This document shows, in pieces, positions 1 to 5,247 of a DNA stretch of 64,000 bases. The stretch is taken from assembly GCA_017454945.1 (NCBI GenBank), contig JAFTCA010000121.1, positions 118-64,117 on the forward strand, in the 5' to 3' direction. The notes beneath the pieces are model-generated. The model made no database searches. It was not told the DNA's origin and saw only the letters and a list, made by a program, of their open reading frames with translations. This DNA is from Bacteroidales bacterium (GTDB lineage: Bacteria > Bacteroidota > Bacteroidia > Bacteroidales > WCHB1-69). How positions within the stretch are numbered: the stretch's first letter is position 1; every line of letters starts with the position of its first letter. Both the position numbers and the translations under genes were made by a program.

Positions 1-359
1 GAGTAAAAATAGAAGTCCCCTATATCTTTCATATAAAAGCGAAGAAAATGCAAAAACTCTTTTGCCTCCTTAATATTGAACTCGTTAATTTCCTCGTAGG
101 AATTTCGTATTAGCAATTGATTTGGCATTCTCACTCGCCTATCCCAAACAGCTGTTATTTCGTGTCCATAGGTTTCATGTCCACTATGCGTGTTCTTTAT
201 ATGAAAATCAGGACCATTATCATCACACCACCACTCAAATTCATAATCTGTAAGCAAAAACTCTGTATTTAAACGAAACACCGGAATATTCCAAGTTTCA
301 AAGTATTGCATCACATGAGAGGGATGTACATCATCTTTTATGGAATAGACAAAAATCAT
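1..359 (-). CDS. ATP-grasp RiPP maturase (MvdC/MvdD-like graspetide synthetase), N-terminal part; runs off the left edge
   Basis: Hand translation from ATG at 359 is open to the window edge: MIFVYSIKDDVHPSHVMQYFETWNIPVFRLNTEFLLTDYEFEWWCDDNGPDFHIKNTHSGHETYGHEITAVWDRRVRMP...KEAKEFLHFLRFYMKD. The D-x-H..V, FRLNTE and I-x-AVWxRR motifs match the N-terminal region of graspetide ATP-grasp ligases. The ATP-grasp core itself lies outside the window. Confidence 0.75.
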   Translation of the reverse strand, partial: MIFVYSIKDDVHPSHVMQYFETWNIPVFRLNTEFLLTDYEFEWWCDDNGPDFHIKNTHSGHETYGHEITAVWDRRVRMPNQLLIRNSYEEINEFNIKEAKEFLHFLRFYMKDIGDFYFY

Positions 360-362
360 CAG

Positions 363-659
363 CTATTTTTTTTCTTTCTGATCGTCGATTTCATTATTGG
401 GTTTATCAATTTTAGCTTGACCATTCTTTTTAACTCCAGATTGTACCGCAATACCACAAAAACTTCCTCCTCTTAAACTTCTTGTTCCCACTTTATCACT
501 AAAAAGACCATCTAATAGCCCCATAGTAGAATATGCAATCTGTTTTTCGTCATCGTACTTGAAAAAATCATTAGTGGTTTCATCTAAAATAGGGGTGGGT
601 TGGGTAAATGCCATCATTAACGGCATAATGTTGTTTTGATTGTTTAATTGTAGGTTCAT
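363..659 (-). CDS. putative graspetide (omega-ester/amide RiPP) precursor peptide
   Basis: 98-aa ORF (the start may be Met12) whose stop lies 3 nt before the ATP-grasp-like ORF. Leader-like PTPILDE..FKYDDEKQI, then VGTRSLR...KIDKPNNEIDDQKEKK, with Thr/Ser/Lys donors ahead of an Asp/Glu-rich end. Confidence 0.7.
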   Translation of the reverse strand: MNLQLNNQNNIMPLMMAFTQPTPILDETTNDFFKYDDEKQIAYSTMGLLDGLFSDKVGTRSLRGGSFCGIAVQSGVKKNGQAKIDKPNNEIDDQKEKK

Positions 660-717: not shown

Positions 718-1455
718 CTATAACACAACAAGTAATAATATGTAAAATATTACCAGAGCTACAATTGCTATGATGATGCTTTTTTTGTGTTTTGAAAATA
801 GCGATTTTAAATCTTGAGAACCATTCTCTCCATTGGAGAAAGCTGATTGTATACTACCTGTAACCATTGATTTCAAATCCAGAGAACCATAAGAACCTTT
901 TCTAGATAATGATCCTTTCTGATATCCATGCGCATATTTACTTAAGCTACCCATACGGCCTTCCTTCATAAATAGACGTTTACAATCATCAATTTTGTTT
1001 TCTTCCACAATGTCAATTAGTGCTAAACGCATTGCTTCATCAGTAGCCACATACTCCTTTTGTGCTTTCGTTAAAAAAAGCATGGCACGATCAAATATAA
1101 GATCTTCATCAGCATATGAAACACACCAATAAGCATCATCAACACCACCGCTTGTATAATTTATTACCAAATAAGCCCCTGTTTCTCTAATCTCTAACAT
1201 CGAGAATAGAAATTTCAATGAGGCAATTACTTCTTCTCGAGAATCTGGATATTCCAAACTTCTGAAGAATTGATTTCGAAGTGAATTCATTCTCTTTGCT
1301 TCCGTTTTCTGTGCGTTAGAGAATGCTGCCATTCCTGCAGCTTGTTTTCCATAATCTGTTACGCTTATTTGTTTTTCTTGTGCATCTATTGCTGCTAATT
1401 GTTCTTTTAACGCACTAAGGTGCTGTTTAATTTTTTCCTTGTCAAGATTTTCCAT
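718..1455 (-). CDS. hypothetical protein with N-terminal coiled-coil-like segment and C-terminal transmembrane anchor
   Basis: 245-aa ORF in the AT-rich block. It ends KKSIIIAIVALVIFYILLLVVL. No family recognised. Confidence 0.7.
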   Translation of the reverse strand: MENLDKEKIKQHLSALKEQLAAIDAQEKQISVTDYGKQAAGMAAFSNAQKTEAKRMNSLRNQFFRSLEYPDSREEVIASLKFLFSMLEIRETGAYLVINYTSGGVDDAYWCVSYADEDLIFDRAMLFLTKAQKEYVATDEAMRLALIDIVEENKIDDCKRLFMKEGRMGSLSKYAHGYQKGSLSRKGSYGSLDLKSMVTGSIQSAFSNGENGSQDLKSLFSKHKKSIIIAIVALVIFYILLLVVL

Positions 1456-1617: not shown

Positions 1618-2529
1618 TTACCAACAAGCGCAAATTTGTTCCACCCAATAATAAAAGCGCGAAACCGGCTTAATACCCACTTTCGATAGGACTCCATTCT
1701 TTATATCAAATTTATCATTTATAATGCTTTTTCTCTTGGACAAATCTATTTGTTTATTTTTTTTATCAAATTTTGCATATACAGCAAAATCCCCATTTGA
1801 AACAATAACACATGAAAAATCTTTTTTAATTCTATTCAAATCAGCCAATTGTTCCTCTGAAATATTTATAATATTATCAACTACTTGATAATTTTCCTTA
1901 TCCCCATCTTTTGGCCTTGCCTCTGTACGCATGTAATTCATATAATACTTGATAACATAACAAATGGTTATGACCAAACACAAAAAATAGACAACAAAAG
2001 CCATTATGTATAGACACTTACAATAACCATGATCACAATACCTCCAACAACAACAATCGCACTTACATACAAATTGCGAGATTTTATACAACGAAGCAAC
2101 AATGACCAAGATTTGCGAAAATAACAAAGCTGTGAAGAACAATCTGTAATATCCTGTAAGATAATATGCCAAACAACGATTATTCGGTGTTGAATAAACT
2201 GTTGTCAAACCATATTTATCTCTGATGCGAAACAATTGGAGTTGATCTCGACGCTCTGCATAGCCAAGAAAAACGCTCAAACACGTAAGAAAGCATAAAA
2301 TACCCATAACCACAACAGAGAGCCATAGGAAATTTTCAATATTAAACCACAACGAACCTTCTGTATCTAGCGGACTAGTTTTGGCAAATACAATTCCGAA
2401 TGTGCCAAACAAAACAAACAATGTGGCTGTGAAAGTAAGGAATATCTGCAGATGGGCGTTACTATTGGATGAATATTGTTCGTGCAAATGCTTTTCAAGT
2501 TCAAACTGTTTGTCTGAAATATCGTACAT
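1618..2529 (-). CDS. hypothetical multi-pass membrane protein with a Cys-rich loop
   Basis: 303-aa ORF with about four hydrophobic segments. CKCDCCCWRYCDHGYCKC lies between the last two. Confidence 0.7.
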   Translation of the reverse strand: MYDISDKQFELEKHLHEQYSSNSNAHLQIFLTFTATLFVLFGTFGIVFAKTSPLDTEGSLWFNIENFLWLSVVVMGILCFLTCLSVFLGYAERRDQLQLFRIRDKYGLTTVYSTPNNRCLAYYLTGYYRLFFTALLFSQILVIVASLYKISQFVCKCDCCCWRYCDHGYCKCLYIMAFVVYFLCLVITICYVIKYYMNYMRTEARPKDGDKENYQVVDNIINISEEQLADLNRIKKDFSCVIVSNGDFAVYAKFDKKNKQIDLSKRKSIINDKFDIKNGVLSKVGIKPVSRFYYWVEQICACW

Positions 2530-3151: not shown

Positions 3152-3763
3152 TTATCCTTTATCTTTCGTCAATTCTTCTATCTTTTTTTCCAACGCAGCA
3201 ATTCGATCGTCGTTTTCTCGTTTTACAGAATGTTTTAATTTCAAAATGGCAAGATTTAGCTCAAACGACGTTTCACTGCTTCTTTTGGGTAAAGTATCAT
3301 CTAAAATCTCATTAACAAGTTGGCTACCGCGCTGCAACAACGATTGCCGCTGGGATTCACCATGTTCCTCGTTGGGCAGTTCAACGATAACCCGTGACAA
3401 TTCTTTCAACTTTGCAAATGTCTCCACTATAGCTATAGTGGTTTCTACCGCCTTAGGACTTTTCAGGATTGTTGCAAGCATATAGAGGCCTTTTTCTGTC
3501 AAGGCCTTAGGAAGATATTTTTTGTGCTGACCTCTTCCATTGCTCTTTAAGGTCAAAAATTTTGACCTTAAAGAATGAAATTCTTGATTATCAATCTGAA
3601 AGATATATCCATCGGGAAATTTCTTAGGATTGTTTCTTACTGCTTGATTGATTTCTTTGGTCTCCACTCCGTAGAGTTCCGCCACATCATAATCTAAAAT
3701 CACCTGCTGTTCGCGCAAGGTGATGATTTTGGATTCCACATCCATTGGTGTTAAATCTTTCAT
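3152..3763 (-). CDS. ORF6N domain-containing protein
   Basis: IITLREQQVILDYDVAELYGVETKEINQAVRNNPKKFP..YIFQ and ALTEKGLYMLATILKSPKA are characteristic ORF6N motifs. Confidence 0.9.
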   Translation of the reverse strand: MKDLTPMDVESKIITLREQQVILDYDVAELYGVETKEINQAVRNNPKKFPDGYIFQIDNQEFHSLRSKFLTLKSNGRGQHKKYLPKALTEKGLYMLATILKSPKAVETTIAIVETFAKLKELSRVIVELPNEEHGESQRQSLLQRGSQLVNEILDDTLPKRSSETSFELNLAILKLKHSVKRENDDRIAALEKKIEELTKDKG

Positions 3764-3867: not shown

Positions 3868-3959
3868 TTTTACAAAGGATAAAATGCCCTTTTGTAAGGG
3901 CAAAGTGTATTTACCCTTGCAAACGTGCGATATAGGGGTGCAATTTTTGTAAGGTGCAA
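3868..3959. promoter_or_regulatory. array of direct/inverted repeats upstream of the kinase promoter (operator-like)
   Basis: tttgtaagggcaaa 3891-3904 and tttgtaaggtgcaa 3946-3959 are direct repeats. cccttgcaaa 3914-3923 is an imperfect inverted copy. A TATTTTTG -7 box follows at 3983-3990. Confidence 0.4.
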
Positions 3960-4008
3960 CCCAAAAAAATGGGAGTTTTTTGTATTTTTGCTGCGGATTT
4001 TCAAGAAT

Positions 4009-5247
4009 ATGAACGACTCTTCCACTTCGGGTGCCATCACTTCGTCCTTTGAGAACATCTCGGACGTCTTTACTGCGCATAGCGAAATCGCTGCAGGCGG
4101 ATTCAACTGCTTATACAAGGCGCAGCGCTACGGAAAATGGTATGTATTGAAAGGCTTGAAGCCCGAATTTCGCAATAGCACCGTTCATCAGGAACTACTG
4201 GCCAAGGAGTTCGAGTTGGGCATCAAGATGAACCACCCTCACATTGCTCAAACAGTGGGCTTAGATACCGACCCTCTTGCCGGACCCTGCATTGTGATGG
4301 AATATGTTGATGGCGTGACCCTGAAGGAGTTCCTGCAAACCAACCCTTCAGCCAAAACACGACTGAAAATCGCGCACGAGCTGCTGTCGGCAATAGCCTA
4401 CTTCCACGGTCTGCAGATTGTTCACCGCGACCTGAAGCCCGACAACATCCTCATCACCCGCAACGGCCACAATGTGAAGCTCATCGACTTCGGCTTGGCC
4501 GACAGCGATTATCACGGTGTGTTGAAACAACCCGCCGGCAGCGACCGTTACGCCGCACCCGAGCAGAAAGAGGGCAAGGTGGCCATCGACTGCCGCGCCG
4601 ACATATACGCCTTCGGCCACATTCTGCGTCAACTCTTCCCGCACTGCTACGGCGCCATCTACCGCAAATGCGTGCAACCCGACCGAAACAAGCGTTACAA
4701 CAATGCCGAGGAGATTCTGAAACGGCTGCAGCGCGTGCAATGGAGCACACTTGCTCTCTTCCTCTCAATGCTGTTGCTGTGCGCCGGTACAACCATTTGG
4801 CTCTTGCAAAAGCATTACCTGCAGAGGCATAGTCCCCATGCAGAGCCCATCATCCTGACAAACACCGACACACTGATTGTTAGAGACACCGTGTTGATTG
4901 TAACAGAACCCGCAGCTCCGCCACGAATCCCGCAAGAAGCCATCCGCATGCTCAACCGTTCCTTGGACACACTTTTCCAACCTATTTGGGACAAGTACCA
5001 TGCCGCCACAACCCCTGCAAACCTCACGCAATGTACACAAGATATCCAAAAAATCCTGCAGAAGTACGATGCCATACAGCACTCCATCCTCTCCCCTATA
5101 AAAAAGGCATACCCTACTTGTGTGCCGCTGTCGGAACAATTAGACAAAGCATATCATCAGAATTACAACCAGCGGTACAAAGCCATCTGCGACTCCATCA
5201 CCAGGAGATTCCATCTTCAGAACGGCCTACCGGATCCGTTTGAATAG
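4009..5247 (+). CDS. membrane-anchored Hanks-type Ser/Thr protein kinase
   Basis: VLKGLK, HRDLKPDNILI, DFG and RYAAPE motifs, then a single TM segment (WSTLALFLSMLLLCAGTTIWLL) and a C-terminal domain. Start moved from 3925 to ATG 4009, which follows the promoter box. Confidence 0.92.
   Translation: MNDSSTSGAITSSFENISDVFTAHSEIAAGGFNCLYKAQRYGKWYVLKGLKPEFRNSTVHQELLAKEFELGIKMNHPHIAQTVGLDTDPLAGPCIVMEYVDGVTLKEFLQTNPSAKTRLKIAHELLSAIAYFHGLQIVHRDLKPDNILITRNGHNVKLIDFGLADSDYHGVLKQPAGSDRYAAPEQKEGKVAIDCRADIYAFGHILRQLFPHCYGAIYRKCVQPDRNKRYNNAEEILKRLQRVQWSTLALFLSMLLLCAGTTIWLLQKHYLQRHSPHAEPIILTNTDTLIVRDTVLIVTEPAAPPRIPQEAIRMLNRSLDTLFQPIWDKYHAATTPANLTQCTQDIQKILQKYDAIQHSILSPIKKAYPTCVPLSEQLDKAYHQNYNQRYKAICDSITRRFHLQNGLPDPFE

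Follow-up and report, generated by a model that had tools for sequence, protein, structure and literature searches.

The closest described systems to the locus reported here are those of microviridins and chryseoviridins, whose ligases (MdnC, 5IG9; MdnB, 5IG8; CdnC, 7MGV; AMdnB, 7M4S) combine an MvdD pre-ATP-grasp domain with a RimK-like ATP-grasp domain and whose precursor gene is located beside the ligase gene. Microviridins are characterized by a PFFARFL leader motif and a TxKxPSDx(D/E)(D/E) core motif, and the leaders of graspetide precursors by the signature Phhx(1,2)h (PMC8939145). In the available part of the survey by Carter et al. (2026), group 31 is described as new, uncharacterised and predicted by RODEO; a gene coding for a TerB-domain protein (PF05099) is found in 31% of its 49 BGCs, and genes coding for a protein kinase, a dynamin and a PD-(D/E)XK nuclease also co-occur with it (PMC13097080). 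A term search of the co-occurrence table of that survey, within the part available, returned group 31 as the only TerB-associated group. The same source, to the extent that it is available, reports the first partner-dependent graspetides, rosaritide MirB/MirC, in which a non-enzymatic partner gene strictly co-occurs beside precursor and ligase (PMC13097080).

We analyzed a stretch of 64,000 nt (C93:118-64117, hereafter the window) from a ruminant-gut Bacteroidales MAG of 124 contigs and 2.62 Mb, a host that the original prediction, made from the letters of the window without database searches, had correctly assigned to the Bacteroidales. Our results make it very probable that the left edge of the window carries, on the minus strand and within a low-GC accessory island, a three-gene graspetide-type cassette in which a 245-aa membrane-anchored partner is followed by a 98-aa precursor and an MvdD-like ATP-grasp ligase, and that the ligase gene is interrupted between its codons 113 and 114 by an insertion sequence (IS) of the DDE_Tnp_1 (IS4/IS5) type, of which the genome has about 6-7 copies (Table 1). 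The GC content of the first 3 kb of contig C93 is 33% versus 47% genome-wide. Neither the ligase stump nor the 98-aa ORF had a match among the 60 related genomes searched, which indicates that the locus is accessory. The locus was detected in none of the public RNA runs (metatranscriptomes).

Table 1. Features at the left edge of the window (positions are those of the window).
Feature	Position	Strand	Remarks
IS right terminal inverted repeat (DDE_Tnp_1 type)	1..20	.	Runs on 117 nt leftwards to the contig end
TATA target-site duplication of the IS	21..24	.	Flank comparison C104/C93; single TATA in empty-site contigs
Ligase codons 1-113 (predicted pre-ATP-grasp, leader-binding domain)	21..359	-	PF21068; with 26 IS-derived codons forms a 139-aa ORF
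98-aa precursor-like ORF	363..659	-	Homologues directly upstream of ligases
245-aa protein, coiled-coil-like N-terminus, C-terminal membrane anchor	718..1455	-	Conserved upstream partner of the sub-family's cassette
303-aa Cys-rich multi-pass membrane protein	1618..2529	-	Co-oriented, same low-GC island; cassette link uncertain
ORF6N-domain protein	3152-3763	-	PADLOC candidate defence family PDC-S05, 1.8e-75
Membrane Ser/Thr kinase	3925-5247	+	PD-T4-6/mad6-type defence kinases, ~1e-39

The original prediction had described a frame that starts 3 nt after the stop of the 98-aa ORF and stays open to window position 1, and the coordinates bear this out: the ATG lies at positions 359-357, the frame is open through window base 1 (119 codons), and the TAG stop of the 98-aa ORF (365-363) is separated from the ATG by the triplet CTG (362-360). 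The D-x-H, FRLNTE and ITAVWDRR motifs from which a ligase had been recognized are all present, as D-V-H (D10, H12) and at residues 28-33 and 68-75, and eight of the residues in these regions (D10, H12, R29, N31, T32, W72, R74 and R75) are invariant in 11 family ligases. The window fragment alone matched PF21068, the MvdD pre-ATP-grasp domain, with 29 bits versus a Pfam gathering cut-off of 27. An ATP-grasp RiPP ligase was thus recognizable from 119 residues of raw sequence. The expectation that an intact maturase lay hidden beyond the edge did not hold. Only 117 nt of DNA lie to the left of the window on C93, window positions 1-20 belong to the terminal inverted repeat of the IS, and the frame closes 20 codons past the edge for a total of 139 aa, which illustrates that a frame open to a contig edge needs extension before a gene is called. 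Relatives retrieved using HMMER from 1.8 billion representative proteins are 324-345 aa long, and their similarity to the stump ends at residue ~114.

The missing part of the ligase (residues ~112-334) was localized by tblastn with full-length relatives at C104:12496-11822, 138 nt from the end of that contig. When the unique flanks of C104 and C93 were joined with a single TATA, an open frame of 337 codons was obtained, which reads ...FLRFYMKDIYSIGSITWDR... across the junction and is collinear with its homologues without any indel. Interruption of the ORF had been named beforehand as an outcome that would speak against a ligase; the frame is indeed interrupted, by the IS after codon 113, but the ATP-grasp part exists on C104. 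The joined 337-aa protein matched four NCBIfam models end to end, namely TIGR04184 (MvdD family; 1e-43, 150 bits versus an equivalog cut-off of 475), TIGR04187 (1e-42), TIGR04185 (MvdC; 8e-40, 137 bits versus 425) and TIGR04192 (grasp-with-SPASM; 1e-28, 101 bits versus 230). These matches, together with that of the fragment to PF21068, uphold the identification of the truncated ORF as a ligase of the MvdD/MvdC type, and since all four scores are far under the equivalog cut-offs, they place it in the superfamily and in no named maturase family. The solved structures nearest in sequence are those of CdnC (6e-30) and MdnC (5e-27), then AMdnB and MdnB, with end-to-end alignments (E values of 1e-23 to 6e-30) in which the ELR, DWR and D..E.N blocks are conserved. 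None of the 57 residues invariant across the 11 family ligases is changed in the joined ligase; D287, E300 and N302, within the conserved ATP-grasp motif region, are among them. One tblastn alignment, obtained with P0003, extended 20 residues past the junction as if the ligase ran on into the contig tail; we rejected it as a chance alignment because three other contig ends share the DNA of this tail with 100% identity. Separately, five giant proteins (P0019, P0021, P0029, P0032 and P0037; 1,962-3,927 aa) each gave 4-7 separate matches to residues ~30-74 of the ligase N-terminal domain, a hint that very large proteins contain a repeat unit similar to a segment of the pre-ATP-grasp domain.

The identity of the interrupting element was deduced from its ends and from a related copy, its interior at the ligase being unassembled. 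The first 137 nt of C93 (C93:1-137; about 137-138 nt) are 100% identical to the ends of C106, C112 and C99 and 95% identical to C9:648-783, a segment that closely follows a DDE_Tnp_1 transposase gene (PF01609, 3.6e-25) whose start is present in the C95 copy. The end of C104 is likewise a repeat, common to C76, C55, C19, C16 and C95. Between the inverted repeats GGGGACTTCTATTT and GGTGACTTCTAATT, 17/30 positions agree, and each repeat is flanked by TATA: the unique part of C104 ends with ...GAATATATA before the left end of the IS, and the unique part of C93 starts with TATATC. In the assembly we counted six left and five right IS ends, flanked by TATA, ATAA or TTAT, and the IS-to-unique depth ratio was 44.5/6.69 (~6.7x the flank) in contigs of samples X1 and X2. 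The element resembles IS4/IS5-type (DDE_Tnp_1) sequences in its terminal inverted repeats, in the AT-rich target duplication of 4 bp and in its multiple copies in the genome, and the 95%-identical copy on C9 adjoins a transposase gene of this type; the copy here differs in being known by its ends and has no assigned ISfinder name. Pairing of C104 with C93 by the duplication alone was rejected, given that the end of C76 also reads ...TATA, and the adjacency of the two contigs is instead based on the continuity of the gene and on the empty-site contigs described below. At C93:47-54, 70 nt before the window begins, the right end of the IS carries TAACTTTG, which fits the Bacteroides -7 promoter consensus TAnnTTTG. 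Facing outward, this element could drive antisense transcription over the ligase stump and the precursor.

We examined the occupied and empty forms of the site in other samples. In X1 and X2, which belong to one study, contigs lead from the unique flank into the IS at either junction (C93 and C104), and none of the contigs from these two samples represents the empty site. Two ENA contigs (L007 and L008) share the break point of C93. In X6, a bovine gut sample, a contig of 151 nt crosses from C104:12497 to window position 21 with a single TATA, and an 817-nt contig from a further study (X10) crosses the same empty site, again with a single TATA. Taken together, the crossing contigs and the IS junctions of X1 and X2 establish that C104 and C93 are neighbours and that the IS is a genuine insertion, and the occurrence of IS-free junctions in two independent metagenomes indicates that the insertion is polymorphic and that intact 337-aa alleles exist. 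As contigs drop rare variants, the source sample may also contain the intact allele at low frequency. Given that the ligase is split and that its catalytic two thirds are on C104, this strain is most likely unable to mature the peptide; we thus regard the cassette as real yet most likely inactive in this strain. The locus therefore represents a natural knockout, with an IS-split maturase in one rumen strain and an intact one in sister populations, from which it follows that the cassette is dispensable and that a ready-made pair of alleles is available for comparison.

Used as a single query, the 98-aa ORF matched only its own 98%-identical cluster; such a query is blind to the family, which appeared only with a profile. 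The profile of the upstream ORFs revealed at least 164 clusters of small proteins of 72-98 aa, whose named members are all annotated as 'hypothetical', none having a Pfam domain, and for which we found no Pfam or NCBIfam model. A homologue, an ORF of 75-91 aa, is located directly upstream of an intact ligase in 12/12 loci of three lineages (L009-L018, L023 and L024), originating from seven rumen Bacteroidales MAGs, one Isosphaeraceae MAG and two freshwater Bacteroidota MAGs in addition to L023 and L024, and an adjacent co-oriented small precursor gene is also found in L007 and L008. The anticipated placement of a precursor beside the ligase was thus recovered in every related locus examined. 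Ligase identity to that of the window is 58-61% in the seven rumen Bacteroidales MAGs and 77% in L023, in which the 3-nt spacing between precursor and ligase is the same as in the window.

Alignment of 64 representatives of this family highlighted an unusually clean signature. The predicted leader of the window precursor (residues ~1-45) contains IMPLMMAF, Y35, D36 and Q40, and its predicted core (residues ~55-98) contains G58, T59, R60 and S61 followed towards the C-terminus by N89, E90, I91, D92, D93, Q94 and K95. P13 (then L/I, L/M, M, x, F), Y35, Q40 and a Thr or Ser at position 59 are present in 64/64 representatives, D92 in 63/64, D93 in 62/64, K95 in 60/64, N89 in 58/64 and E90 in 51/64, and the family consensus is MPLLMNFT.P.PI.E...YD...QI.Y.M...VGT(R/K)(S/C)L(R/K)..T...D.KNEIDD.K.VK. 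The invariant P13 and the hydrophobic residues after it (MPLLMNF) fit the Phhx(1,2)h leader signature (PMC8939145), and a ligase that forms omega-esters would require just such a combination of a universal hydroxyl residue and an Asp-Asp pair. The Gly- and Cys-containing middle of the window ORF is an insertion of the sub-family and is not conserved. We considered GG64-65 as a leader cleavage site and found it unlikely, as it follows the conserved T59 and varies across the family. Contigs from samples X8 and X19 agree with the window as far as position ~395 and differ from it beyond that point (GTGGGGTTTATC...), which suggests a variant precursor allele just before the NEIDD motif. The precursor motifs were found neither in the supplements of Makarova 2022 nor in the available part of the Carter 2026 dataset (PMC13097080), and our literature search returned no paper joining TerB, ATP-grasp and RiPP. 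The family is large, unannotated and experimentally untouched.

Compared with microviridin systems, the cassette has one ligase instead of two and no GNAT, neither the PFFARFL nor the TxKxPSDx(D/E)(D/E) motif is found in the 98-aa ORF or in the family consensus, and the scores of the joined ligase fall well short of both equivalog cut-offs, that of MvdC and that of MvdD. Judged by these motifs and scores, the precursor-ligase family is not a microviridin, in agreement with the non-microviridin type proposed in the original prediction. It also differs from grasp-with-SPASM systems, the TIGR04192 score being below its cut-off and the cassette having no rSAM gene; a small radical-SAM gene was found 4.7 kb upstream in L023 only. 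The gene preceding the precursor in most loci (L009-L018 and L024) codes for a TerB-domain protein (PF05099), a domain that the available part of the survey lists as co-occurring with group 31. The window locus differs from that group by having no TerB gene, the 245-aa membrane-anchored protein being encoded in its place. The family probably corresponds to graspetide group 31, an assignment based on likeness in gene content to what the available part of the survey reports for that group.

The 245-aa protein belongs to a family of three clusters only, all beside this ligase family (window, L023 and L024). Its homologue in L023 shares 37% identity (E=1e-45), and L024 contains two 245-aa-type paralogues followed by an AMP-binding enzyme, the TerB gene, the precursor and the ligase. 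The AMP-binding (adenylating) enzyme (L024:5802-7313) lies between a 245-aa-type partner and the TerB-precursor-ligase string and may contribute an additional tailoring step there. The hypothesis that the 245-aa partner is a diverged TerB was rejected (BLASTP E=38; hhalign probability 0.06%), and this protein, like the 303-aa membrane protein, had no match in Pfam, NCBIfam or PADLOC. The 303-aa protein also adjoins the cassette in L007 and L008 and has no homologue in L023. Just upstream of the 245-aa-type partner, L023 (4865-5938) and L024 (3027-4112) code for proteins of 357 and 361 aa without a family match; these two proteins appear related by eye over an N-terminal stretch, and none is found in the window, where the 303-aa protein is present instead. 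A partner gene beside precursor and ligase is also the organization that the available part of the survey describes for rosaritide MirB/MirC (PMC13097080), from which our system differs in that its partner is TerB-like or membrane-anchored and coiled-coil-like instead of a PpiC-type isomerase, and in that partner dependence is here a possibility. These conserved and unexplained partners make the family a reasonable target to ask whether partner dependence is common among graspetides.

Based on homology and on the conservation of residues, we propose that the N-terminal domain of the intact ligase would bind the leader helix of the precursor (MPLLMNF-type, with its invariant Pro), and that the ATP-grasp domain would activate the carboxylates of D92 and D93, perhaps also of E90, as acyl phosphates. 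Thr/Ser59, and perhaps also K95 or K88, would then react with these acyl phosphates to form macrolactone or lactam rings. In the strain studied here, insertion of the IS with duplication of TATA has reduced the ligase in the window to the stump of 139 aa, its catalytic two thirds being found on C104.

The split of the ligase could in principle reflect the assembly and not the genome, as the MAG is distributed over 124 contigs, C93 ends inside a repeat, and IS-free alleles occur in other samples; the truncation would then stem from a broken contig, or from chimeric joining at a repeat, in a genome that really has an intact ligase. We find this highly improbable given that contigs from X1 and X2 and two ENA assemblies cover the IS junction, on both sides in X1 and X2, that the inverted repeats and the 4-bp duplication are exactly as in a real insertion, and that X1 and X2 contain no empty-site contig. 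The role of the 98-aa protein deserves similar scrutiny. Members of its family, at 72-98 aa, are long for RiPP precursors, no leader protease or exporter is encoded nearby, and the ligase also gives weak RimK-family matches, features compatible with an accessory, immunity or regulatory protein accompanying an enzyme that modifies something else, for instance, in the manner of RimK, the C-terminal end of a larger protein. The tight and conserved placement just before the ligase gene (3 nt separate the two in the window and in L023), the graspetide-type leader Pro motif, the universal hydroxyl residue with an Asp-Asp pair near the C-terminus, and the MvdD-type leader-binding N-terminal domain of the ligase argue against such a role, which we consider improbable, and we retain the 98-aa protein as the candidate substrate of the ligase.

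Where the modified peptide would act is a further matter. The conserved partner, TerB in most loci and the membrane-anchored 245-aa protein here, raises the idea of an intracellular conflict or stress system, in which the peptide, rather than being a secreted natural product, would act in the cell or at the membrane together with that partner. Consistent with this idea, the neighbours located 2.5-3.3 kb from the cassette are an ORF6N protein of PDC-S05 type (2e-75, rounded) and a PD-T4-6/mad6-like kinase (1e-39), the locus sits in a low-GC island and has no match in 60 relatives, and group 31, in the available part of the survey, co-occurs with kinase, dynamin and PD-(D/E)XK nuclease genes. 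No cassette protein matches PADLOC, however, and closeness to defence-like genes may be incidental; we regard an intracellular conflict or stress system as unlikely, albeit less so than the two preceding alternatives. Returning to the graspetide cassette itself, we would advance only tentatively, as a conjecture somewhat more plausible than the latter alternative, that precursors of the (T/S)59...K-N-E-I-D-D-x-K type constitute an uncharacterised graspetide family of at least 164 clusters in Bacteroidota and Planctomycetota, maybe with a new ring topology, that would be partner-dependent or partner-delivered and would have an envelope or conflict role rather than that of a secreted protease inhibitor.

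Downstream of the ligase, C104 codes for a 106-aa membrane protein and a 389-aa protein. The suggestion that a methyltransferase, protease or transporter might be found downstream was not borne out: there is no protease, methyltransferase or exporter in the cassette or downstream on C104, where the 106-aa and 389-aa proteins lay outside the family-library comparison. Just downstream of the 106-aa gene lies a perfect 30-nt GC-rich palindrome, TGTAGAGACGGGGCGCGCCCCGTCTCTACA (L025:8-50, corresponding to C104:11307-11349). This palindrome is found in many contexts in metagenome contigs, with a summed depth of 64-1119 versus ~3-7 for its flanks, and we interpret it as a dispersed hairpin repeat or a terminator-like element.
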